Shown here: piece after piece, positions 6,938-58,542 of the stretch | How the letters are laid out: each line of letters begins with the position of its first letter | Position numbering within the stretch: position 1 is the first letter of the stretch | Assembly (NCBI GenBank): GCA_963792415.1 | Contig: CAWBVY010000006.1 | Coordinates: 288,001-352,000, forward strand | Direction: 5' to 3' | DNA from: Candidatus Deferrimicrobiaceae bacterium | GTDB lineage: Bacteria; Desulfobacterota; Deferrimicrobia; Deferrimicrobiales; Deferrimicrobiaceae | DNA: 64,000 bases | The notes under the pieces: model-generated | Database searches by the model: none | What the model was told of the DNA's origin: nothing | Seen by the model: only the letters and a program-made list of their open reading frames with translations | Translations under genes and position numbers: made by a program

Positions 6938-7273
6938 ATTTCCTCGGTTTATCGAAGTTTGCTCGCCCGATCGCGAGCCCAGTCCATCATACCGCCTACC
7001 TTGTCTACCATATCCTGGCAATGAAATCGAAATTATCATGGGGAGAACGAAGGCTGGAAGACCGCTTTATCAGGTGACCGGTATTACTGAAAACGTAGAT
7101 TGGGATCGAGGGGGCCAGGACGCGATGAGATTCCAACGTCTCCTGTTGCCGCTGATTCCCTTCATGTTCTTCCTCCCCGGTGGCGGGCCTGTGCGAGGGG
7201 ATTGCAGTCCGTACGTCCTCCTGCGGCGAAAATCCCCTCGTCCGATCGGGACCCCAAAGGGGGGGGGCAGGTC

Positions 7274-17888: not shown

Positions 17889-17942
17889 GTCCTCCGCGGA
17901 ATCATTGTCGGAGACTATCCATTCATTTCGTAGCTTCCTCCG

Positions 17943-18143
17943 TTATCCCCTGTCCGATGCGCCGCCGGACCGCCTCCCGGGATTTCGTGATGAGAAAACG
18001 CTCGTCCATAGGGTATTCCACAATGGAGCCGCAGCCGTCGCAGAAAGGGCAATACACGGCATTCAGCAGGTGATCGGCAACTCGGCACCGCCGAAATATT
18101 TCTTCCACCGGTTCAGGGAATCTTCTTTCCGTCTCGTCTCCAT
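17943..18143 (-). pseudogene. Doubly internally deleted DUF169 gene
   Basis: METRRKEDSLNRWKKYFGGAELPITC, NAVYCPFCDGCGSIV and MDERFLITKSREAVRRRIG match the start, middle and end of 56860..57606. Confidence 0.85.
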
Positions 18144-18185
18144 TTTTTGTCCGCCCCGGTCAACGCCTCGAAGCGAACAAGGTCC

Positions 18186-18428
18186 TTACGCCACAATACG
18201 CAGGGCGACATACGGAACCAGGTTGAACAGGATGATTCCAATCTTGAATATCGCTATCCCGATGTAATTCAGCGCATCGAATTGCTCGACCGACAGGCGA
18301 AACCATCTTCCGGTGATCCGATACAACATATCGTGTGCACGCGTGAAGAACAGAAACCAGATCAGGAGCATTCCGTAATTGATCAAACCACACCACAGAA
18401 GGAACTCTTCCACCAGCGTGATATTCAT
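18186..18428 (-). CDS. Small membrane protein (DUF6868-like)
   Basis: FLLWCGLINYGMLLIWFLFF...FKIGIILFNLVPYVAL. Confidence 0.75.
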   Translation of the reverse strand: MNITLVEEFLLWCGLINYGMLLIWFLFFTRAHDMLYRITGRWFRLSVEQFDALNYIGIAIFKIGIILFNLVPYVALRIVA

Positions 18429-18558
18429 CTTTTCCCCTCGTGTTTGCCAAGTTGCCAAACCAGGAACGGGATATCCCTTCGCACCCTTAGGGTACAGCGG
18501 AATCACTCAATGTCCGCATGGAAACTCACGGGCGTCGAGGCTTGAGCACCAGGATGCT

Positions 18559-18798
18559 TCACCCCCCAGCAATGGGTGGCGGAGATTCCATCATCTGGAT
18601 CTCCCACTCGTCCCGGGAACGGTCATACCGGAGGATGTAGCGGGCGCCGTCGGAGCCGTCGAGCTTTACGTACTCGTGGTCCTCCCCCCGCCACCGGTCC
18701 AGGACGCGCACCACCTCGACACGGCGCTCCCCGAGCAGGAAGGCGCGGGGCGTCTCCTCCGCCTTGTACCCTTCGTAGCAGACCACGCGGATCTTCAT
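18559..18798 (-). CDS. Conserved small cytoplasmic protein
   Basis: 79 aa, YEGYKAEETPRAF...YILRYD; truncated paralog at 58347-58478. Confidence 0.8.
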   Translation of the reverse strand: MKIRVVCYEGYKAEETPRAFLLGERRVEVVRVLDRWRGEDHEYVKLDGSDGARYILRYDRSRDEWEIQMMESPPPIAGG

Positions 18799-18829
18799 CC
18801 CCTGCCCAAAAAAACGAAACCGGGACTCC

Positions 18830-18916
18830 GGTCACAAGATCGTCGCAGATCCATCCAATAGATCGTATACTCTTTCAAACAAGATCCCTCGAAGAAACCG
18901 ACCTTCGGGGTGTGGG
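18830..18916 (+). repeat. att-like module copy D
   Basis: GGTCACAAG 18830, degenerate CGTCGCAGA 18841, GACCTTCGGG 18900-18909 (50-bp gap). Confidence 0.75.
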
Positions 18917-19011
18917 AACTATTTTATAGAATTACGTAAATGCAGGGATTCAAGCAATGGGGCGGGGTGACCCGCCCTTTGAGATACGACCAAGCCAATT
19001 TCACAAACCGA

Positions 19012-19308
19012 CTAGAGGATATAGGCGATGAGGGGTGAACTGGAATATAAGGAAGGACTTTCCGGTGTCATTCCCTCGAAACCGTCACGATATCCTCGGG
19101 TGTACGAATCGATGTAAGGGTCTCCGCTGCCGAGAACGGAGTAGTCGATAAGCATGTGGTGGTCATCGGTCCTTTCATCCGAAACACCGCGAACGTGAAC
19201 CTGTATCCCTCGGTGGTATCCACGGAAATACTCAGCCCGCTGCGGTTTCGAAGCCTCGACCATCCGGTCGATGATACTGAGCAGCGCCGGGCATTCTTTC
19301 CTTTCCAA
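19012..19308 (-). CDS. Hypothetical protein (YxRGY / DxYxxGY family)
   Basis: paralogous to 58841..59146 and 38857..39105. Confidence 0.7.
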   Translation of the reverse strand: MERKECPALLSIIDRMVEASKPQRAEYFRGYHRGIQVHVRGVSDERTDDHHMLIDYSVLGSGDPYIDSYTRGYRDGFEGMTPESPSLYSSSPLIAYIL

Positions 19309-19320
19309 CGTTATCCCCCC

Positions 19321-20076
19321 TTACCGGCTTAGGTCTCTTTTCCCTTGGTAATTTTGAGTCGACGATAGGCAGTCGATTATTCCCTTCGAAAGTCTTTCAC
19401 TCATCCAGGCGGGCAACCCTTCCAGAAATGCATGAAAATCCTTAATGCCGATAATATGTACGCCTCTAACCTTCTTTTTCACCTGCACATCCGCGTCCGT
19501 GAACACGATCACCGGTTTAGGTCTCAGAGTACAGACCCCTTTTTCCGTGAGAAGATCCCGGATCGAATATGCCTCTGCCCAGGCCTGCTTGATAAGGTCC
19601 TTCTCGAACGGTTCCCCGTCGCGCTTCAACAGATCCCCTTCACAGCTGACGACTCCCCGGTGGCTTTTCGTCTCGACGGTGAGGATCCCTTTCGTGGAGA
19701 TGACGATATGGTCGATGTTCCCCTTCTTGGATACGCAGTCATGAACAACAAAATATCCCGCCGGGAGTTCCCCCAGCGGATTGCCAGCCTCCTCTTCCGC
19801 AACAGCTCCACGGCGTGCATCGAGGGCCCGGTCGGAGTACGCCTCCGCCTTGCCGCCCATCGCGCTTACCCGGTAGAGGATGCCGACGAAGACGACGAGG
19901 GAGACCGGTATTCCCACTGTTGCGATCGCCTTGCTGCTCTTGCCGAAAAGGTATATCCCCACGAACACGATGATCAGGGCGATGAGCGCAGCCAACCACC
20001 GGGTGACTTCCATCTTTCGGACCCCTGCCCCGGCCTTGTTGTACACCGTCGCTCTCGTCGATCCGGATCCCGCCAT
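19321..20076 (-). CDS. Membrane-anchored NERD (nuclease-related) domain protein
   Basis: two TM segments, then GNIDHIVISTKGILTVETKS. Confidence 0.88.
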   Translation of the reverse strand: MAGSGSTRATVYNKAGAGVRKMEVTRWLAALIALIIVFVGIYLFGKSSKAIATVGIPVSLVVFVGILYRVSAMGGKAEAYSDRALDARRGAVAEEEAGNPLGELPAGYFVVHDCVSKKGNIDHIVISTKGILTVETKSHRGVVSCEGDLLKRDGEPFEKDLIKQAWAEAYSIRDLLTEKGVCTLRPKPVIVFTDADVQVKKKVRGVHIIGIKDFHAFLEGLPAWMSERLSKGIIDCLSSTQNYQGKRDLSR

Positions 20077-20315
20077 CCCCCTCCCTTTCACCGAGTACGG
20101 AATACCCTCCCAAGCGGGGAAACGCCGGAGGGCACGTTCCGGGAGCACAAAACCGTGCGGCCAGATCCCCCTCTCCAGATCTCTTTTCGGAAGAAGCGGT
20201 TACGATCTTTAAGGGAAAATAAGTCCTTCGGGGTGGGTGTGTACTAAGATACGGATGGACCGATCACGAGGGGCTGTTCAATACCTATATGTTTTCACTG
20301 GGGAAACGAGGAGAT

Positions 20316-21641: not shown

Positions 21642-21708
21642 AGGCAGCATTCCCCCCGGTCCGCAATTAAATAGGATCTCCATTACAGGAAAAAGACTTC
21701 CTGGAAAC

Positions 21709-21730
21709 GACCTTCGGGGTGGTTCCCCGA
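21709..21730 (+). repeat. tRNA-fMet-like att core
   Basis: GACCTTCGGG-GTGGTTC-CCCGA. Confidence 0.75.
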
Positions 21731-28114: not shown

Positions 28115-28174
28115 TGACCGGATCCCCGATTTTACTCCAACCGGATGCGGGGATTATGGGATTCGACCTTCGGG
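28115..28174 (+). repeat. att-like module copy F (internally deleted)
   Basis: TGACCGGATCCCCGATTTTACTCCAACCGGATGCGGGGATT joined directly to GGATTCGACCTTCGGG; matches both ends of copies A and B. Confidence 0.75.
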
Positions 28175-28196
28175 GGATGCAGGCCGTGCGGATTCC

Positions 28197-31349: not shown

Positions 31350-31484
31350 GGCTTCCGCATCTCCGAAGGCGTCAGGATCGACTCCCTCCGTACGTTGTGC
31401 GCAATACCCACTATAATGTCATTGTATACGCAAATCGGAATGTGCCGTTGCGTCGTGTCACCATCCCTATCCCGCCACCTCATG

Positions 31485-31581
31485 GATCGCATACTCTTTT
31501 CAATGGGATCCCTCGCAGCAACCGACCTTCGGGTGGGTGAACCATGATTCGGGTGGACCGATAATCGAGGGGGGCAGGTCA
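31485..31581 (+). repeat. att-like module copy E plus outward IS3-like end
   Basis: 31485-31533 is homologous to copy D; TGGACCGATAATCGAGGGGGGCAGGTCA at 31554-31581. Confidence 0.7.
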
Positions 31582-32813: not shown

Positions 32814-33078
32814 TATCGCCCCCTCCTCGAAGGAGATTTTCTCCAACTTTAAAACCGATCCTCCGTTCACAAGACGTCCACAAACTCCATCCGGGGAACC
32901 GGCATTTTATCAGTTACGATGTGTTGGCGATATGAACCTCAAGGATGCGCGAAGAAAAAAGGGGGCAGAGGAAACGCGTTCCCCGGAAGTAGCGGTCGTC
33001 GCATGCAAAGCTTCGTGAAGCGCGTTCCACCTGCGGAGCATCTATTCTTCATCACCGAAAGAGAATGGGGGAAGGGAC

Positions 33079-40795: not shown

Positions 40796-42139
40796 TCAGT
40801 CTACTTTAACAGGTTCCATTACGATACCGTCGATCTCCAGATCTATTTTCAGGCGTTTCGCTGCCTTTTTGGCTTCACTGCGATCATGGAACGGGCCGGC
40901 GATAACACGGTAGCTGTCGCTCCTTTGGAACACCCGGGCCGGGATGGGTGGCCCCTGGTGATTGATGATGGCGGCAATCCTCTGAGCTTCAATCCTGTCA
41001 CGCCCATCGGCAGCCAAAACATACCATGCTTCCAGTTTCAGTGCCGGTATTTCCGGTTTGCCGTACAACGTCTCCGGGTGCTCGACTTCTACAGGTTTCG
41101 CGACCTCTTTTTCACTTCCCTGAATCAACTCGAAGATGGGAACCGGAATCCCCCGGGCCTCGGCCTGTGCTTCCTTGACCTTTTTCCAGTCGAGCGTGCG
41201 CCGGGCTTTCTTTTCAACCGTTCTCAATTTTTTATAGAGTTTCTCCGACTCATGAGCGTCCGACCCTTCCATGGGCGCATGCGCTTCCAGGTAAAGTACG
41301 CCATTGCGTTGCCCTATGAGATATGGCTGGTTGACAATGAGTACCGGTGTTTTCACCGGAGTGTCATCGAAGAGCGTCTTCACGTTTTCCGGATAGAGCC
41401 TCAGGCAGCCATTGGTTGCCGTAAGGCCGATGCTGGCCGGTTTATTGGTGCCATGGATCAAATAGCCCGATTTGCTCAAGTAGAGCGCGTATTCCCCCAG
41501 GGGATTTTCAGGCCCCGGCGGGACGGCTTTGGGGAGGATATCCCCTTTCTTGCGATGGTCCTCGGCAATCGAAGCAGGAACATGCCAGGTAGGCCGGGCC
41601 GCCTTGCGCGCCACATGCATCTTGCCCGTGGGGGTAGGCCGCTCGTCGGTGCCGACACCGACCGGGTAGGTCGTCACCGACAGGGACGTGCCATCCTCTT
41701 TATACTGAAAGAGCCTCATGGTGGCCAGGTTGATCACAATCCCTTTTCTGGGAGTGTCCGGCAGGAGAAAACTCAGGGGCAACAGGATACGCTCTCCGGC
41801 CTCAGGAACCCATACGTCTACCCCGGGATTCGCCGCACTGATTGCGTTGATCCCCAGACTGAAGTGTCGAGCAATATCCGGGAGCGTATCTCCCTTTTCA
41901 AGCCTGATAACCGCCAACCGGCCGATGACGTCTTCTCCTCGTGCAACCGGAAACCTGTTTCGCTCGATCTCCTTTTCACGGTGGCCTGGAAAAGAGTCTG
42001 CTGTCTCCTGGACACTTTTCATTGCGGCACATCCAGAGAGAGAGAAGATGAATATGCAGAGAGCCGCCAAACGAAACCGGTTGCAGGAGAGTGATCGATC
42101 ACGGGTTCGTAACATGGGTTCAGCAAGCACCTTTCTCAT
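40796..42139 (-). CDS. ErfK/YbiS-type L,D-transpeptidase with LysM and SPOR domains
   Basis: GDTLPDIARHF, PGPENPLG, LIHGT, TNGCLRL. Confidence 0.9.
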   Translation of the reverse strand: MRKVLAEPMLRTRDRSLSCNRFRLAALCIFIFSLSGCAAMKSVQETADSFPGHREKEIERNRFPVARGEDVIGRLAVIRLEKGDTLPDIARHFSLGINAISAANPGVDVWVPEAGERILLPLSFLLPDTPRKGIVINLATMRLFQYKEDGTSLSVTTYPVGVGTDERPTPTGKMHVARKAARPTWHVPASIAEDHRKKGDILPKAVPPGPENPLGEYALYLSKSGYLIHGTNKPASIGLTATNGCLRLYPENVKTLFDDTPVKTPVLIVNQPYLIGQRNGVLYLEAHAPMEGSDAHESEKLYKKLRTVEKKARRTLDWKKVKEAQAEARGIPVPIFELIQGSEKEVAKPVEVEHPETLYGKPEIPALKLEAWYVLAADGRDRIEAQRIAAIINHQGPPIPARVFQRSDSYRVIAGPFHDRSEAKKAAKRLKIDLEIDGIVMEPVKVD

Positions 42140-42243
42140 CGGCGACCCGGCGGTCTCAGCGAGATCCTGCAGGCGTTCCACCCCGCCTGACCTGACCCCT
42201 GTGATCGGTCTATCTATATCGTAGTGCAAAAATCCTCCGGAGC

Positions 42244-42392
42244 TGACCTGATCCCCGATATTTGACCAACTGGAGACGGGGATTTTCCCCTGCCGACCAC
42301 AAGACGGTCACAAGCTCCAGTCGCTGACTGGAAATTCTTCCAGACAAGGGAACTTATAGGATTCGACCTTCGGGGTGGTTTCCCGACCAGGT
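42244..42392 (+). repeat. att-like module copy A (most complete)
   Basis: IS3-like TGACCTGATCCCCG end, GACCACAAG/GGTCACAAG, 50 bp, GACCTTCGGG-GTGGTTT-CCCGACCAGGT. Confidence 0.82.
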
Positions 42393-42417
42393 GTCTGCGA
42401 AACCAGGGGAAGTCCAC

Positions 42418-44196
42418 CTATTCATCCTTGACGCAGCGAACGGATCGACCGGTCGTGATGGACGTCCAGAAATACGATCCATCAACGCCGCTATAGTTGA
42501 CATCCAGCCCTCTTCTCCATGCCTCGACGTTATTGCCGTTGAGACTGGAAGTCCAGAACGATGCCTGAACCTCGACGGAGAAGAAAACCACGTTATCCCC
42601 GCTGGGATAAAAGCCCCCGCCCGGAAGACCTTCGAAACCGGAGTCGCCGCACGGAGTCCTCCCCTGGCACAGGCCTGCCGATTTCAGCCGATCGCCGGCC
42701 GGAGCGCCGCAGAAAGTATCCGGATAATTGCCCCCCGGATACGGGGAGCAGCCACCGGGCCCGAGAGCATTCGCCAGCGTGACGTACTCGGGGTCGCTCG
42801 GGATGTGCCAACCGGAGGGACAGATGCCCCGGGACTTCTCGGTTTGCGCCCCGCACATCGCCTGGTTCCAGGTATACAGGCCTCCGTAGGTCTCACAATT
42901 GCTCCCCGAATCTTCATAGCAGAATTTCTTTATGGAGGCACAGGACGTGCCTTGCCCATCCGCAGAGGGAGTTGCGGTTCCGACATCGAGATTCCTCGCG
43001 ATCCAGCACTGGGTCCCGATCTGAACCGTGGGATAGCCCTCGCCCGCATACGTCAACACGTCGCCGCAGACCTCCCAGGGGGCCACGACGACCGTCACCG
43101 TGTACTCCTGCGTCGAGGCGTCCGCGGCCGTGACCGTGTAGACAACGGGGTTCGTGAAGTCTTGCGCCACTCCCGATGCCGGGGCGATGCTTGTCCCCGT
43201 GTGGACGATCGTCGGGACGAGCGCCGTGACAACCGTGCCCGCGGGGAGCGTCGCGTCGATCGTATGCGATGCCTCCAAGATGGTTCCCTCCGCGCCAGGA
43301 GCGGCGAAGTTGAACGTCGTAATCTCCTTGCTGCTGCTCGGCGCTACCGTGACCGTCACCGTGTAATCCTGCGTCGAGGCGTCCGCGGCCGTGACCTTGT
43401 AGACAACGGGATTCGTGAAGTCTTGCGCCACTCCCGATGCCGGGGCGATGATTGTCCCCGTGTGGATGATCGTCGGGACAAGTGCGGTGACTGCCGTGCC
43501 GAACGGCACCGTCACGGCAATCGTATGCGATGTCTCCGTAACGGTTCCCACCGCATTGTAATTTGCAAAACTGAACGCCGTAATGGCTTTGGCGGTTCTC
43601 GGCGCCACGGTGACCGTCACCGTGTACTCCTGCGTCGAGGTGTCTGCCGCAGTCACCGTATACACGACCGGATTCGTGAAGTCCTGTGCAACCCCCGTTG
43701 CGGGAAGGATGCCTGCTCCCGTATGGAGTATCGTCGGGACAAGCGCCGAGACATCCGTGCCGGACGGCACCGTCACGGCAATCGCATGCGATATCTCCGT
43801 AATGGTTCCCACCGCGTCGTAACCTGCAAAACCGAACGCCGTAATGGCTTTGGCGGTGCTCGGCGCCACCGTGACCGTCACCGTGTAATCCTGCGTTGAG
43901 GCGTCCGCGGCCGTCACCGTATATATCACCGCATCCGTAAAATCCTCCGCGACTCCGGTCGCGGGACTAATGCTTGCTCCGGTGTGGATGATCGTCGGGA
44001 CGAGCGTCGTGACATCCGTGCCGAACGGCACCGTCACGGCAATCGTGTGCGATGCCTCCGAAATGGTTCCCTGAGCAGCAGGATTTTCGAAGCTGAACGC
44101 CGTAACGGATTTGGCGTTACTCAGCGACGAATCCGAACAACCTGTCAACGTCATTCCCAGGGCCACAAAGAGAACCCCCAACAACATCCGTTTCAT
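42418..44196 (-). CDS. Lipoprotein with four ~80-aa Ig-like (DUF5018-like) repeats and a FISUMP domain
   Basis: LTGC lipobox; 240-bp repeats; IGTQCWIARNL, YGGLYTW, GICPSGWHIPS, SVRCVKD. Confidence 0.88.
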   Translation of the reverse strand: MKRMLLGVLFVALGMTLTGCSDSSLSNAKSVTAFSFENPAAQGTISEASHTIAVTVPFGTDVTTLVPTIIHTGASISPATGVAEDFTDAVIYTVTAADASTQDYTVTVTVAPSTAKAITAFGFAGYDAVGTITEISHAIAVTVPSGTDVSALVPTILHTGAGILPATGVAQDFTNPVVYTVTAADTSTQEYTVTVTVAPRTAKAITAFSFANYNAVGTVTETSHTIAVTVPFGTAVTALVPTIIHTGTIIAPASGVAQDFTNPVVYKVTAADASTQDYTVTVTVAPSSSKEITTFNFAAPGAEGTILEASHTIDATLPAGTVVTALVPTIVHTGTSIAPASGVAQDFTNPVVYTVTAADASTQEYTVTVVVAPWEVCGDVLTYAGEGYPTVQIGTQCWIARNLDVGTATPSADGQGTSCASIKKFCYEDSGSNCETYGGLYTWNQAMCGAQTEKSRGICPSGWHIPSDPEYVTLANALGPGGCSPYPGGNYPDTFCGAPAGDRLKSAGLCQGRTPCGDSGFEGLPGGGFYPSGDNVVFFSVEVQASFWTSSLNGNNVEAWRRGLDVNYSGVDGSYFWTSITTGRSVRCVKDE

Positions 44197-44520
44197 CCGT
44201 TGGCTCCTTGAATGGTTACTTGGCAACGATTTCCGAAAAAACCGTGCAGGTTCCATTGTCACGAATCCAGGGATCCCGGCCGTTCCACATTGCCATTGAC
44301 GTTGCTTATCGCGCTCACCCGTTCCTTTCTTCATTTAATTCTCCCGCCCGGATGACCTACCTGCCCTGAATCCATACCAGTTGCGAAAGGGATCTCTTCG
44401 GGTACAGGGAACTTGGCACAGGGCCAAAGTCCAGAAAACTTTCATTTGTGGCATGTTCCAACAAGAAAGGGGATGCCGGATTGTACCGGACTCTCCTGTG
44501 TTTCCACAATGTTGCCGAAG

Positions 44521-44586: not shown

Positions 44587-45189
44587 TCACCCAGGTGGAA
44601 GATCGTAGGAAACCTTCGATTCATTTCCTTTAACAATGCCCTTCTTGATGAGCTCCGCAATGATGCGCTCTACCTCCGCCTCGGAAAGGGGGGGCTTCCG
44701 AAACCATGAGTTGATCGTGGCAGCCAGGGTTTTCCGTGTTCTGGGTTTGGCGGCGCCACTCTTCGCCAAATTGGCGATTACTGCCGAAACCCGATCAGGC
44801 GCGGACTTCGAGGTTGCCAGCTTAACAAGCGGCAACTCCAGGATGGTTTTGACTCGACTGGAGGCAATCTTCTTGCTCTTCAAGTACTGAATCAGAGGAT
44901 CAAAGCCGGTATCTTTTGAAACGATATAAAAGTTAGCGTCCGGCTCTTTTGCGGAAAGCTGACCGATGTAATAGGCGATGTGGAAATCAAGAGCGTTACC
45001 GCCGGTTCCCGCGATCTTGATGTATTTGGCTCGATCGCCCAATCGCTGCAACACCGAAGCAACCTCGTACGTCACCTTGGCCTGATTTGCGCCCACAAAA
45101 ACGATGACGCTGAAATGTTCACGCTCCAGCGCAGCCATTGCCTGAGGCTGAACATTTTCATAATCGATTAAGACGTAGGTATTTTTCAC
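44587..45189 (-). CDS. PIN/NYN-like domain protein
   Basis: VLIDYENVQP, NALDFHIAYYIG, IVSKDTGFDPL. Confidence 0.88.
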   Translation of the reverse strand: MKNTYVLIDYENVQPQAMAALEREHFSVIVFVGANQAKVTYEVASVLQRLGDRAKYIKIAGTGGNALDFHIAYYIGQLSAKEPDANFYIVSKDTGFDPLIQYLKSKKIASSRVKTILELPLVKLATSKSAPDRVSAVIANLAKSGAAKPRTRKTLAATINSWFRKPPLSEAEVERIIAELIKKGIVKGNESKVSYDLPPG

Positions 45190-45626
45190 CGCGCAACGCT
45201 CCTCGTGGGCTCTAATTTTGTAATATCCGAGAGGAAATCTCGGGCGGCTTGCACCACTATCCCCATCGTATCCTTCGGTTTGTTCCTGTACGGGCCGAAA
45301 TGGCGTCGATCCCCCGCGAGAAAATGCGTTGCCTTGCACCGCTGTGCCGAGGCGAACACAGGCCGATCCTTCTCAGGGAGTGAAATCGTGCACCGCTCTC
45401 CAGCAACATCAGGAACAAGGTGGACTGTCTCCAGAATCTCGGCCAACCGGCCAAGAGCTGCCGGATGCTTCCTATCCAGGTTCCGTCGTGCCTCCGCAAG
45501 GCAATACGCGCTGGTCACGACCTCCCAACTCCCCGCCGCAGCCAGATCGATCACAAGCGACGCCTTCCCTTCCGGGTTGCGAGCGGCGGTGAACAGCACG
45601 TCCGAGTCCAGGAAAAGGCGTATCAA
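45186..45626 (-). CDS. PIN-domain (VapC-like) toxin
   Basis: LFLDSDVLF, EARRNL, KDRPV, GDRRHFG. Confidence 0.85.
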   Translation of the reverse strand: MIRLFLDSDVLFTAARNPEGKASLVIDLAAAGSWEVVTSAYCLAEARRNLDRKHPAALGRLAEILETVHLVPDVAGERCTISLPEKDRPVFASAQRCKATHFLAGDRRHFGPYRNKPKDTMGIVVQAARDFLSDITKLEPTRSVAR

Positions 45627-45874
45627 CGCTTCCGTCCAAGCCTCTTCAGGATCCTGGACCGCTCGCCGGGAGCAAGCCGGTCTTCCCGCTCCCATCGGCC
45701 GATCTCTTCGTCCGTATAGGTGTCCAACTCCACAACGGCAGCAGGCCGAAGCACCAGTTCCCCTTTCCGGTCCTCGACAACCAGGACCCCGCCCGGCTTG
45801 ATCCCGAGGCGCCTCCGCATGGACGCAGGCAAGGTAATCTGCCCCCTCCCGGAAACGACGACATTCCCTTTCAT
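45623..45874 (-). CDS. AbrB/MazE-family antitoxin
   Basis: RGQITLPASMRRRLGIKPG; overlaps the toxin start. Confidence 0.9.
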   Translation of the reverse strand: MKGNVVVSGRGQITLPASMRRRLGIKPGGVLVVEDRKGELVLRPAAVVELDTYTDEEIGRWEREDRLAPGERSRILKRLGRKR

Positions 45875-45890
45875 AACGCGCCTCCCATCC

Positions 45891-45925
45891 GATATTCCGT
45901 AATGCAGTCTAACTGATATTCCGTA
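45891..45925 (-). promoter_or_regulatory. Direct-repeat operator candidate of the TA operon
   Basis: GATATTCCGTA at 45891 and 45915. Confidence 0.5.
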
Positions 45926-46063
45926 TTTATGCAACTGACCTGCCTGACCTGCTTCCCGGTAATCGTCCAGCTGGTCGAGGGAATTTGCGCTGGAATCCGT
46001 ACAGCTGGCAAACCTCGTGCAAACAACAATCGAGTTTTGTAACCCTATTGGTATACTTCCACC

Positions 46064-48053: not shown

Positions 48054-48124
48054 CGTGACTACCTCCCTTTTTCGTTTGTTGTTCTGTCTAACAGTTGATC
48101 AGACAAATGAACGTGAATTCTCGT

Positions 48125-48205
48125 GGTCACAATTTGGACAGAAAAAAGTCACAAGAATTTTCAAAAATAAAACACCCACCGGGTTGTGGATAACCCGGTG
48201 GGTGT
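48125..48205 (+). repeat. Arm-type repeats plus hairpin (type-2 module)
   Basis: GGTCACAAT/GGACAGAAA/AGTCACAAG at 11-bp period; ACACCCACCGGG...CCCGGTGGGTGT hairpin. Confidence 0.65.
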
Positions 48206-48307
48206 ATTCTCCTCTTCCAATCGACGGACGATGTAACCCCGAGGTATCCCAAGAACCGATATCCTGGCGCCCCCGAAATTCTCGAATCCTTCGCTTGAAT
48301 AGAACGT

Positions 48308-55684: not shown

Positions 55685-55776
55685 GCCTCCCCTTCCTGGT
55701 CCCAATCCCCAACAGGGCATTGAATTCCAGACAAGAAAAAGGGGGTCACGATTTCTCGTAACCCCCTGATTTTATA

Positions 55777-55813
55777 TGGTAGCTTGGCCAGGATTTGAAC
55801 CTGGGACCTTCGG
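55777..55813 (-). pseudogene. Degenerate 3' half of initiator tRNA-Met (att scar)
   Basis: minus strand CCGAAGGTC-CCAGG-TTCAAAT-CCTGG-CCAAGCT-A-CCA followed by terminator-like hairpin 55741-55766; no 5' half. Confidence 0.75.
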
Positions 55814-56056
55814 CTAGAGTTGTTCCTTTCTCAGAAATTTTCCGTTTGCCGCATCGAATTTATAGAATGAATCCCCTTCCTGAACCGTCCATTCGGCGTT
55901 GGTTTTCTTGCCGAGGGACATCTTCGTTCCGTACTTGTTGGGCTTTAGTCCGTTTTTTTTCGCCTCGGTCATGATCTTGTTGCTGTCCGCGAATTCACCG
56001 ACGGGATGAAGATCAATTAAAGGATTCGCCTGGATCCACTCAGTGAGGTTCTCTGT
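55814..56056 (-). pseudogene. 5'-truncated gene remnant (about 80 codons)
   Basis: open frame TENLTEWIQANPL...FDAANGKFLRKEQL* with no start; its stop abuts the tRNA remnant. Confidence 0.5.
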
Positions 56057-56057
56057 T

Positions 56058-56528
56058 TCACCTTTTCTTTTCCTTCTTGGGTGGCGTGCAAACCTCTTCT
56101 AACAGTGCATCATTTGCGGTTTCTGGTTCAATATTCTCCCATTTCGCGGGAGAAATGAATTTTTTATACTCATCTTTCATGGATATATAATTAAATTCGA
56201 TAGTTTTCATTAAATGAGCGCTGCAGTCTATTTCTAATAATGCCGTTGCTTCCTTATAAATACGTGTATCTTTTTTATCGTTAACTGGTTCTCCGAATTT
56301 TATCCACACCTTTACATTGTTGTTTCTTTTTATTATACTTTTAGTATCGTAAAAATATATCGTATCATCAATAAAATCTATTGCATAATTATTCCATCTG
56401 CTACGATCAGGAGAAAAGCCATATACAACATTATCTTCTATCGTATTGTCGGTACTTTTCGACATTGCCATGGCGTGCAGGAAGATTAAAAATAGGAAAA
56501 AAAATATCAAAAGCCCTGCGCGTCTCAA
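56058..56528 (-). CDS. Surface-adhesin-E-like secreted protein (AT-rich)
   Basis: YFYDTKSI, KVWIK, EIDC, WENIEPET...VC; TTG start with CAGGAG RBS. Confidence 0.7.
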   Translation of the reverse strand: MRRAGLLIFFFLFLIFLHAMAMSKSTDNTIEDNVVYGFSPDRSRWNNYAIDFIDDTIYFYDTKSIIKRNNNVKVWIKFGEPVNDKKDTRIYKEATALLEIDCSAHLMKTIEFNYISMKDEYKKFISPAKWENIEPETANDALLEEVCTPPKKEKKR

Positions 56529-56703
56529 AATCGTCTCCTGTCCCTCAGCCCATTTCAACAGCAAGACTTCGAACTGCCACCAGAACATCTCAAAAGATGA
56601 AAACCCCACTTCCAAGTTCGATACACTTACAAAAACATTTCGTATTCTCATCGGCAATACCACGGGACTTCTTCAACAGTTCCGGCTCGCCCCGGATGTA
56701 AGG

Positions 56704-56842
56704 CGACCTGATCCCCGATTTTAGGCCAACTGGACGCGGGGATTTTCGCTTGGTCACAAGACGGTCACAAACTTCAATCGAGGATTGGAAATTCTTTCAG
56801 CCAAGAGAACTTATTGGAATCGACCTTCGGGGTGCGCCCCGG
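56704..56842 (+). repeat. att-like module copy B
   Basis: aligns end to end with copy A; GGTCACAAG/GGTCACAAA at 56752/56763; GACCTTCGGG 56822-56831. Confidence 0.82.
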
Positions 56843-56859
56843 GGATGATCCGTTACCCC

Positions 56860-57606
56860 CTACCCCATTCGCCGCTGGACCGCCTCCCAGGATTTTGTAA
56901 TGAGAAAACTCTCGTCCATGTTGTTGATCATGGCGGCGAACTTGTTCATCGGCATGGCGAAGCTCAGCGTCGAGCCTGGGACAAAGGGCCTGGCGGAAAC
57001 GTCGAACATCCCGAGAACGGCCCTCGGGTGGGACGCACCGATCTCGAGGAAAGGGAATTTCACGATGGAGCCGCAGCCAGCGCAGAAAGGGCAAACCACG
57101 GCATTCAGGTCGGCCTCTTCGAAGCCGGCCAGCGTGTAGAGTCCCGAAAGAACATCCGGAGGGGCGAAGAAGACGGCCACCTGAGGTGCATCGGCTTCCC
57201 GCAGTCTGTCCCATCTCTTGAAAACGATGTGGCGGGCCGGCGCCGTGAAGGAAGGCGAACGCGCTTCGAACTCCTTCACCAGCTCGGGAGATTTTTTGTA
57301 CCGTATGCCCTCCAGCATCCCCGGGATGCCGCACGAGAGAAAGTGTTCGAAATCCGGAGGGACGCCCTGCGTGAAGCCCAGGTAGCGCTTCCCACCGCTG
57401 CAGCCGATCGCAGCAACGTCGAACAGCAGGCTTTCCCCCTTGCGGATCTTCGCAAGGTCCGCGATAAAGCACCGGTGGCCTTTCGCCGGCTCCGCCCGAA
57501 CGGCCGCCCCTTCATCGTCGGTATACCAGCAGGTGATGGGCAGCTCGGCACCGCCGAAATATCTCTTCCACCGATCCAGGAAGTCTTCTTTGAGTCTCAT
57601 GTCCAT
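56860..57606 (-). CDS. DUF169 protein
   Basis: IGCSGGKRYLGF, PFCAGCGSI, GMFDVSARP. Confidence 0.88.
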   Translation of the reverse strand: MDMRLKEDFLDRWKRYFGGAELPITCWYTDDEGAAVRAEPAKGHRCFIADLAKIRKGESLLFDVAAIGCSGGKRYLGFTQGVPPDFEHFLSCGIPGMLEGIRYKKSPELVKEFEARSPSFTAPARHIVFKRWDRLREADAPQVAVFFAPPDVLSGLYTLAGFEEADLNAVVCPFCAGCGSIVKFPFLEIGASHPRAVLGMFDVSARPFVPGSTLSFAMPMNKFAAMINNMDESFLITKSWEAVQRRMG

Positions 57607-57724
57607 ATTCCCTCCTCCTCCATCAATGCATCGAAGCGGAGATGAACGGAAAATGCATTACCACCCATAGGGTACAATGGAATCACTCAATGTCGGCGTG
57701 GGAACTCACGAGGGGGAAATACCC

Positions 57725-58300
57725 ATGAAGAAGTCCTTTGGCGCAAAGACGCTTGCATTCCCCACCCCGGTTTGGGTGGTGGGGACTTATGACCGGAATG
57801 GAAAACCAAACGTGATGACTGCGGCATGGGGCGGAATCTGCTGTTCCAGCCCTCCATGTTTGGCCGTCTCGCTCCGGAAGGCCACCTACACATACGGGAA
57901 CATCGTGGAGCGGAAGGCATTCACGATCAGCGTCCCCTCCGAGAGCCATGCCCGGGAGGCGGATTACATCGGCATGGTTTCAGGAAAGAACGTAGACAAG
58001 TTCGTTGCCGCCAAGCTCACCCCCGTCCGGGGCTCCCTTGTGGACGCGCCGTATATCGGGGAGTTTCCCCTCGTCATCGAATGTCGACTTCTCCATACCA
58101 TCGAGATCGGCCTGCACACCCAGTTCGTCGGGGAAATCCTGGATGTCAAAGCGGAAGATTCCGTCTGCGACGAGAAGGGATTTGTCGATATCGAAAAAGT
58201 GAAGCCGATCCTCTTCGCTCCGGAGATCAATACCTACCACGGGGTCGGCAGGCTTCTTGGTCACGCCTTCTCTATCGGAAAGGATATTCGAGCGAGGTAG
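57725..58300 (+). CDS. Flavin reductase-like protein (flavoredoxin)
   Basis: [28 protein letters not shown]. Confidence 0.9.
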
Positions 58301-58346
58301 GCTTCAACGAAGGGACCGCTCGGTCAATCCCTGAGGATAGGATGCT

Positions 58347-58478
58347 TCACCTGCCCGTCATGGGTGGCGGCAATTCCATCATCTGGATCTCCCACTCGTC
58401 CCGGGAACGGCCATAACGGAGGATGTAGCGGGCGCCGTCGGAACCGTCGAGCTTTACGCACTCGTGGTCCTCCCCCCG
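58347..58478 (-). pseudogene. 3' remnant of the 18559..18798 paralog
   Basis: RGEDHECVKLDGSDGARYILRYGRSRDEWEIQMME, near-identical DNA. Confidence 0.8.
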
Positions 58479-58542
58479 CCTTTGGCTCCCTTCGGCTCCA
58501 TCGCCGCCGCACGCCAAGCGGCTTGAGACGGCGGAGGCAGAT

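Follow-up and report, generated by a model that had tools for sequence, protein, structure and literature searches.

Probable attachment sites with strictly phased arm and core repeats in a tRNA-Met-linked island of a Candidatus Deferrimicrobiaceae bacterium

Attachment (att) sites of the lambda type combine arm-type and core-type binding sites for the integrase, as known for phage lambda Int (PDB 1z1b, 1z1g, 5j0n). The DNA analysed here (the window) is a stretch of 64,000 nt from a Candidatus Deferrimicrobiaceae bacterium (GenBank assembly GCA_963792415.1, contig CAWBVY010000006.1, positions 288,001 to 352,000 of the forward strand). Positions refer to the window unless a contig (C) or locus (L) is named, and genomes are designated by G numbers, G000 being this genome. 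A repeated module of 90-140 bases in the window is probably a recombination (attachment) site from small mobile elements piled up beside a tRNA-Met gene. As in lambda att sites, the arm repeats of the module lie approximately one helical turn apart, are unlike the core, and are separated from it by approximately 50 bp across an A/T-rich stretch.

Islands of comparable makeup have been described. Streptococcal islands grow by accretion, and in CIMEs (cis-mobilizable elements) decayed elements are without an integrase and keep their att sites (PMC5704250). The units in the window likewise retain att sites without an integrase; they differ from CIMEs in going down to 0.6-1.3 kb with one or two genes, in a site that keeps 10 nt of tRNA, and in that no conjugation or mobilisation genes were seen. 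The ssrA islands of Dehalococcoides hold many direct repeats of the RNA-gene 3' end, within approximately 100 kb downstream, in low-GC (guanine plus cytosine), highly variable DNA, and some are without an integration module and were proposed to be CIMEs (PMC3146451). Repeats of an RNA-gene 3' end downstream in a low-GC variable region are shared by the island described here; a serine recombinase and a 20-bp ssrA repeat figure in that account, whereas here a tyrosine integrase, tRNA-Met(CAT) and arm-type repeats are found. Prochlorococcus tycheposons are tyrosine-recombinase elements that build islands at tRNA genes, and their re-integration pushes older elements inward, leaving partial tRNAs and degenerate integrases (bioRxiv 10.1101/2020.12.28.424599). 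The present locus, with partial tRNAs in a tRNA island and a degenerate integrase, resembles them but belongs to another lineage with other integrases, and the portion of the tycheposon description used here contains no fixed-spacing arm-plus-core module. The system is of a known kind, and its unusual, cassette-like traits are the closeness of the sites, the tRNA part of 10 nt, the one-armed site with strict phasing and the truncated integrase that has been kept.

In a full module, two GGTCACAAG-type repeats of 11-bp period are separated by exactly 50 bp from the core CGACCTTCGGGGTG that follows them. Copies were counted using a sequence-only covariance model built on ten copies, which placed nine in the window, all nine on the + strand: four full, at 2424-2512, 18826-18914, 42292-42378 and 56751-56836, and five partial or decayed (three core-proximal and two decayed). 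The copy at 42244 is given part by part.

42244-42292, + strand: left hairpin segment (HP) of the 42244 copy, TGACCTGATCCCCGAT...CGGGGATTTTC, present in a subset of copies only (repeat family D7)
42295-42314, + strand: two arm-type direct repeats of the 42244 copy, GACCACAAG and GGTCACAAG, with an 11-bp period
42315-42363, + strand: arm-core spacer of the 42244 copy, with the A/T-rich box GGAAATTCTTCC within the palindrome CTGGAA-ATTC-TTCCAG and a small AAG..CTT hairpin
42364-42381, + strand: core of the 42244 copy, CGACCTTCGGG followed by the 7 nt GTGGTTT, where conservation between copies stops
56705-56838, + strand: full copy, with the HP at 56705-56752, arms at 56752-56771 and core at 56821-56838
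2424-2514, + strand: full copy without HP, with arms at 2428-2447 and core at 2497-2514; the core is followed by a complementary arm, which gives a long hairpin
18826-18916, + strand: full copy without HP, with arms at 18830-18849 (the second degenerate) and core at 18899-18912; linked with a 79-aa gene in three genomes
28116-28177, + strand: HP and core with arms and spacer deleted, otherwise equal to the 42244 and 56705 copies
31478-31537, + strand: spacer and core matching the 18826 copy, followed by an inverted repeat of insertion sequence (IS) type (..GGGGGGCAGGTCA)
21668-21722, + strand: core-proximal partial copy between convergent genes
32861-32939, + strand: decayed copy with arms CCGTTCACAAGACGTCCACAA and a degenerate core
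90-161, + strand: decayed copy consisting of spacer and degenerate core CAACCCTCGAGGTGCGCA

The sequence-only reading from which this analysis started had claimed arm doublets with a constant 50-bp gap to the core in four copies, and this is borne out: the start of arm 2 lies 58 nt before the start of the core in all four full copies, whose alignment (repeat family D5) covers 80 nt between arms and core CGACCTTCGGGGTG and has no gaps. Its alignment of two copies over approximately 130 bp was recovered for the copies at 42244 and 56705, with 83% identity, and the copies it had described at 28115-28174 (arms deleted) and 31485-31533 (like another copy) are those listed above at 28116 and 31478. 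All the copies in its inventory stand, and those at 21668-21722, 32861-32939 and 90-161 had been missed. The motif GGTCACAA occurs eight times in the window, on the + strand only, where 1.44 occurrences are expected (eight were reached in 0 of 100 shuffles); pairs of it with the 11-bp period lie at 2428/2439 and 56752/56763, whereas the pairs at 18830/18841 and 42295/42306 are degenerate. The exact 14-mer CGACCTTCGGGGTG has four sites in the 2.84-Mb genome, every one of them in the window on the + strand. Segmental duplication of gene blocks accounts for part of the likeness between copies (17939-20215 resembles 56849-60226, and 2129-2205 resembles 18613-18689), so the four full copies are not fully independent, which counts against the att-site reading. 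The blocks 17939-20215 and 56849-60226 are segmental paralogs of approximately 80% identity containing a DUF169 gene (internally deleted in the first copy), genes for a 79-aa and a 98-101-aa protein and a gene for a NERD-domain nuclease, and a flavin reductase gene is inserted in the second copy.

A profile search across related genomes had been proposed as a check. Within the genus, the covariance model detected the module family in 17 of 28 genomes, and three other genera have it too; class-wide it is present in 25 of 77 genomes and 4 of 19 genera, all within one family. The copies number 1-8 per genome and are clustered on a single strand (all 8 on G010:C37 and all 6 on G002:C4), and neighbouring sites are 0.64-1.3 kb apart in G014, G002, G005, G010, G041, G043 and G046. 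The 33 copies collected for comparison include 25 with recognisable arms, and 22 of these have exactly 58 nt from arm 2 to the core; the remaining three have 55, 57 and 70 nt, the 70-nt copy having three arms. Compared pairwise, the 22 equally spaced copies are on average 71% identical in the arms, 49% in the spacer (range 27-80%), 88% in the core and 27-29% in the flanks, the flank beyond the core having 27%. The module is therefore bounded, with both ends conserved in sequence and the middle mainly in length. The earlier argument that the spacing is kept despite sequence drift holds for this larger set, and variable spacing in further copies, which had been named as a sign against it, was found in few of them. 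The strictly kept internal spacing suggests that the module was built for reading by an integrase.

The window is the main part of a low-GC island (C6, approximately 276-356 kb) with approximately 58% GC compared with approximately 65% for the genome. The tRNA-Met(CAT) gene, apparently that of the initiator tRNA by its sequence, lies at C6:354364-354440 on the - strand, to the right of the window past an IS; the island is on the 3' side of this gene and ends at its 3' end. It is one of three tRNA-Met(CAT) genes in the genome (ARAGORN), and no tRNA gene lies inside the window. An island 3' of tRNA-Met is also present in G046, G011, G016, G017 and G024, and the scpA-scpB-rluB-tRNA order seen here recurs in a complete genome of another genus, where the low-GC stretch after it has a module at its start. 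One fragment of the tRNA was found in the window.

55735-55813, - strand: direct repeat of the 3' part of tRNA-Met(CAT) with its terminator; 55777-55813 corresponds to tRNA positions 41-77, with 35 of 37 nt identical (BLAST)

This repeat is a putative attR-type island boundary. In relatives, 3' fragments of the tRNA are present in 7 loci; they begin between tRNA positions 33 and 41, and all of them share the orientation of the tRNA. Besides the window fragment, 11 full or partial fragments were counted in the relatives' loci. Such repeats are the signature of repeated site-specific integration into a tRNA gene, as known for genomic islands generally (Islander, PMC4383910).

Read in the sense of the tRNA (the - strand of the window), the module begins with the half-core CACCCCGAAGGTCG, continues with a spacer of approximately 50 bp containing the A/T-rich box, and ends with the arms, two 9-bp CTTGTGACC repeats one helical turn apart, and sometimes the HP. 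This reverse-complemented core CACCCCGAAGGTCG has the exact 10-mer CCCGAAGGTC in common with the tRNA, namely positions 40-49 of tRNA-Met(CAT) (3' strand of the anticodon stem and variable loop), where the fragments begin. The core-tRNA match scores 10 compared with 6.6 +/- 1 for shuffled sequences, and at most 2 of 200 shuffles reach the score in 17 of 33 copies, with the limits that the match spans 10 nt only and that the copies behind the test are not independent. In some copies the half-core is one half of the palindrome ACCTTCGGG-N7-CCCGAAGGT, which is full or nearly full in approximately 5 of 33 copies (G017, G041_5089, G021_25540, G042_10707 and G043_7162); on the far side of the core, merely CCCGA is kept in about half of the copies without the full palindrome. 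The tRNA-derived part is down to 10 nt, and the module cannot restore the tRNA. In all 7 loci with both, the strand of the module is opposite to that of the tRNA or its fragment, and the reverse-complemented core is co-oriented with them in 7 of 7. A Pfam scan of the 65 open reading frames (ORFs) of the window found no integrase, relaxase or conjugation gene, and PF00589 had no match within the window; the units of the window keep att sites without integrase and transfer genes.

Doublets of the arm type recur at the junctions of tRNA and island in relatives. In G046, CCTGTGACCAATCTGTGCCC stands directly after the tRNA terminator; in G024, CTGTGCCCAATTTGTGCCCAA comes shortly after the terminator, ahead of a full-length integrase gene; and in G011, TTTGTGACCAGATTGTGACCAA comes shortly after a tRNA fragment with terminator, again ahead of a full-length integrase gene. 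These doublets are of the TTGTGACC or TGTGCCC type and have the 11-bp period. In G005 and G010, a doublet CTTGTGTCCAAATTGTGACC lies 130 nt before the tRNA fragment, and a homologous segment was recognised in the window.

48106-48215, + strand: relic of a P-arm segment, GGTCACAAT ... AGTCACAAG with a terminator hairpin; the homologous segment lies near the tRNA fragment in G005 and G010

Other doublets are found in the same place. A direct-repeat pair ACTCATAAC lies just after the tRNA-Met terminator in loci L058 and L064 (G011 and G017), and a pair CTTATCACA does so in L061 (G016). These pairs are probably arm sites for other types of integrase with the same tRNA as target; arm sites that each suit a different integrase would be expected to vary in this way. 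At L062 8393-8409 (G024), between the resident integrase gene and the tRNA, the arm motif forms a perfect palindrome, GGTCACAAATTGTGACC, at which the same DNA-binding domain might have a regulatory role.

The integrases encoded beside these junctions are 61-69% identical to P0001, the product of an integrase gene near the tRNA of this genome (L002 3753-4775, G000:C6:355753-356775), and have approximately 22 more residues at the N-terminus. An AlphaFold model of such a paralog (39-row alignment, mean pLDDT 83.1) begins with three strands and a helix, and compared with full-length lambda Int, residues 1-342, it gave a Z score of 20.9 and a root-mean-square deviation of 6.5 over 311 aligned residues with 1z1b_B; 1z1g and 5j0n aligned similarly. 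The relatives' integrases are thus predicted to have a lambda-Int-like three-domain fold, including, as in lambda Int, an N-terminal arm-binding domain. Distant homologs carry the Pfam family PF12167 (Arm-DNA-bind_2); in the close paralogs Pfam did not call an arm domain, and the first 60 residues of two paralogs matched no family at E<=10. The integrase family is present in 17 of 17 module-positive and 2 of 11 module-negative genomes of the genus (one-sided Fisher test, approximately 8e-6, a co-occurrence that is overstated by the kinship of the genomes). In G000, G011, G016, G017 and G024, an integrase gene of the P0001 type (86-90% identical) is located upstream of the tRNA gene in divergent orientation. 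The truncated P0001 type has an open frame at 86-92% identity in at least 12 genomes of the genus, and in G000 the gene is preceded by an ORF6N-domain gene.

Breaks in homology lie close to the core. Homology between the window and G014 begins at 28178, 1 nt after the core of the copy at 28116-28177. Contigs of related strains, which come from RNA libraries and show variants but not transcription, were compared with 40800-44400; they stop matching at 42373-42378 when followed from the module side and at 42379-42382 from the other side, and one strain form joins 42143 to 42417 via 15 other letters and is thus without the module. The uncovered parts of 40800-44400 (runs X1-X4) and the small word shares (18 runs) are uninformative on expression and habitat. 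In three genomes, the same module and left-hand gene are followed by unrelated right flanks from approximately 7 nt after CGACCTTCGGG. A flank that directly follows a module core in G005 is separated from that core in G014 by an RHH-RelE toxin-antitoxin gene pair and a further module; such a difference would be expected if a gene pair with one site had inserted at a core.

The modules are best explained, with good though not full confidence, as attL-type sites (core plus one arm) of elements with a lambda-Int-like tyrosine integrase that accreted 3' of tRNA-Met(CAT). The tRNA context, the tRNA-fragment repeats, the arm motif at the junctions, the predicted integrase fold, the breakpoints and the spacing all agree with the arm-plus-core att site that had been proposed from the window sequence. 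The N-terminal domain of the integrase would bind the two arms, and the core-binding and catalytic domains would bind the core. The fixed 58 nt, probably with a bend in the A/T-rich spacer, would let one protein bridge arms and core, and it is proposed that the distance is held because one protein must reach both. Strand exchange would take place at or just after the core, and under this proposal the sequence beyond the core would therefore differ between copies. Protein binding, bending and recombination at the module are inferred from sequence. The copy at 56705 is a candidate attL of a one-gene element of approximately 1 kb, the other end of which would be the tRNA fragment at 55777-55813; the predicted empty site joins 55776 to 56839 via one CCGAAGGTC. 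The Adhesin_E gene beside this copy occurs in G002 without either putative partner site.

Several observations weigh against this interpretation, besides the dependence among copies and genomes given with the respective values. P0001 is without approximately 22 residues, which make up most of the N-terminal arm-binding domain; it is the sole family member in this genome, with no full-length family integrase in the searched G000 sequence. The nine copies in the window are for this reason most likely orphan sites of decayed elements, similar to CIMEs, and at most an integrase provided in trans could use them. In one related genome that is complete, modules occur with XerC and XerD only. The module has a single arm cluster, whereas a classical attP has arms on both sides; it differs from lambda att also in a tRNA-derived core, and no IHF, Xis or Fis site was identified in the modules. 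Some homology breaks fall inside modules or elsewhere, the region being a fine mosaic shaped by other processes too. Beyond CGACCTTCGGG, the next 7 nt are of two or more classes (GTGCGCA, GTGGGTG and others) unlike the anticodon loop of the tRNA; these classes differ between putative partners, and matched attL/attR pairs could not be established. The -10-like A/T-rich box and the hairpins are also compatible with a role as RNA or promoter, which is weighed below.

The genes next to the modules are mutually unrelated in the window (YkuD-SPOR, Adhesin_E and the 79-aa protein); in relatives they include RHH-RelE and HigB-like genes, and gene orientation around the modules is mixed. Other elements lie in and near the island. 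A complete IS3-family IS (HTH_21, rve and rve_3) is located between the island and tRNA-Met at L002 939-2170 (G000:C6:352939-354170), and its inverted repeats begin with TGACCTGATCCCC. A palindrome of approximately 70 bp at 60364-60435 consists of the inverted repeats TGACCTGCCCCCCTCAAATCGGTC...GACCGATTTGAGGGGGGCAGGTCA and looks like a miniature IS derivative; single copies of its repeat are present at 31554-31580, at approximately L002 870-935 and at approximately L013 9370-9407. The 46-nt hairpin segment (TGACCTGCCCCCCGG..ACGAGGGGATTTTCGC) also occurs without arms or core on both strands of the genome, at C6:546362 (-), C9:24795 (+), C9:49298 (+) and 7228-7273 of the window (-). The island also carries a PIN7-domain gene (44587-45339) and a MazE-type antitoxin gene (45623-45934), and an HP-like segment at 45946-45993 is just upstream of the latter. 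Tandem repeats are found within two genes: a 261-bp repeat at 43090-44071 (3.8 copies, 81% identity) in a 638-aa DUF5018/Fib_succ_major gene on the - strand, and an 84-bp repeat at 60966-61355 (4.6 copies, 95% identity) in a Sel1-repeat ORF (60353-61435, + strand).

It is unlikely that the module is a small-RNA gene or a regulated promoter, with the repeats as operator or -35-like element, the box as -10 and the hairpins in a + strand transcript. By eye, a -10-like hexamer (GAWAAT, TATACT) does follow the second GTCACA by 17-18 nt in most of the 33 copies, hairpins of different sequence (CTGGCAA/TTGCCAG, CATCAAG/CTTGATG) are found at the same place in some copies, and around the core it is the + strand that gives the better fold in 24 copies and the - strand in 8. 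However, a sigma-70 scan gave 0 promoter-like sites in three window copies, folding beats shuffles weakly (mean z approximately -0.9 to -1.0; whole-module z -0.3 to -2.9), the hairpin between the A/T-rich box and the core shifts register among copies, and in 17 of 31 copies a transcript would read into a convergent gene from its 3' end. A 226-nt contig from the RNA libraries covers 42192-42417 exactly, but such contigs are not evidence of transcription. An RNA or promoter would also leave unexplained the tRNA context, the tRNA-fragment repeats and the motif beside integrase genes. Membership in a known RNA family had been named as a point that would speak against att sites; Rfam 15 gave no match in the window at gathering scores, and the modules in 8 loci had none at E<=1. 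Whole-module folding as the principal explanation was set aside, the z values spanning -0.3 to -2.9 and the predicted structures differing among copies, as was a promoter of the next gene: 8 same-strand genes start 168-180 nt past the core, and the intervening sequences are unrelated. Some leaders downstream of modules hold promoter-like TTGACA-type boxes of their own (by eye), and a terminator scan of three copies found one terminator-like site, on the - strand at 18818-18833.

Derivation from the IS3-family IS as a miniature inverted-repeat transposable element, moved by the IS transposase and tolerated in one orientation relative to neighbouring genes, is very unlikely. The IS-like resemblance is confined to the HP end, where the first 13 nt (TGACCTGATCCCC) equal the left inverted repeat of the IS 2 kb beyond the window, and to a subset of copies, most copies (including many in relatives) having no HP. 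The right flank of the 42244 copy looks like an IS-type inverted repeat by eye, but in most copies the core end has no terminal inverted repeat to match, and no target-site duplication was seen at the flanks. The absence of the module from the 42244 place in related strains, the HP-like pieces elsewhere in the genome and the palindrome of two IS-type repeats at 60364-60435 would fit such an element. Against it, the copies are limited to tRNA-linked islands and to one strand, their conserved parts are the arms and core and not the ends, and the IS pieces are better read as separate insertions beside or into modules. It is hardly credible that the modules are attC sites of a classical integron cassette array. 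Same-strand repeats after gene 3' ends, in a low-GC region of small unrelated and toxin-antitoxin genes, would suit an array, as would the 0.6-1.3 kb between neighbouring copies in relatives; but the searched genome has no integron integrase (TIGR02249 gives at best 83 bits, below its cut-off of 265, and the nearby integrase scores 38 bits), RYYYAAC...GTTRRRY ends were not seen by eye, and conservation is in sequence and not in structure. Two further candidates were rejected. XerD is 10 kb away and Xer/dif recombination has no link to the sites; and for replication-coupled single-strand transposition, the orientation of the modules tracks GC skew and gene direction (three regions), which the orientation of the tRNA explains equally.

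A resident integrase gene beside a primary site, followed by a same-strand array of short cassettes with one site each, is the arrangement of integrons. The att-site reading could be extended to a tRNA-Met locus that acts as an integron-like gene-capture platform with a lambda-type integrase instead of IntI, an extension that is doubtful but shares with integron arrays the resident integrase by the primary site and the same-strand, single-site units. The platform would comprise a resident integrase gene divergent from the tRNA, with the CCCGAAGGTC region of the tRNA as primary site, and an array of same-strand cassettes of one or two genes; at least 8 loci have neighbouring sites spaced 0.6-1.3 kb apart. 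Every cassette would have one att site only, one-armed and in strict 58-nt phase, and could be excised as a circle and re-inserted at any core. In contrast to integrons, no IntI was found, the sites are conserved in arm and core sequence instead of being folded attC hairpins, and the mobility of cassettes is hypothetical.

The islands of this family are probably built by site-specific accretion at the tRNA-Met gene. The 58-nt distance, held over four genera while the spacer drifts, provides a natural data set on the geometry of arm-binding integrases. If the short units are mobile, they would represent a cassette-capture system parallel to integrons, and this system, with its target motif in a very conserved region of the tRNA, could also serve as an integration tool. 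The module is an exact sequence marker of element boundaries in the flexible islands of an uncultured bacterial family.

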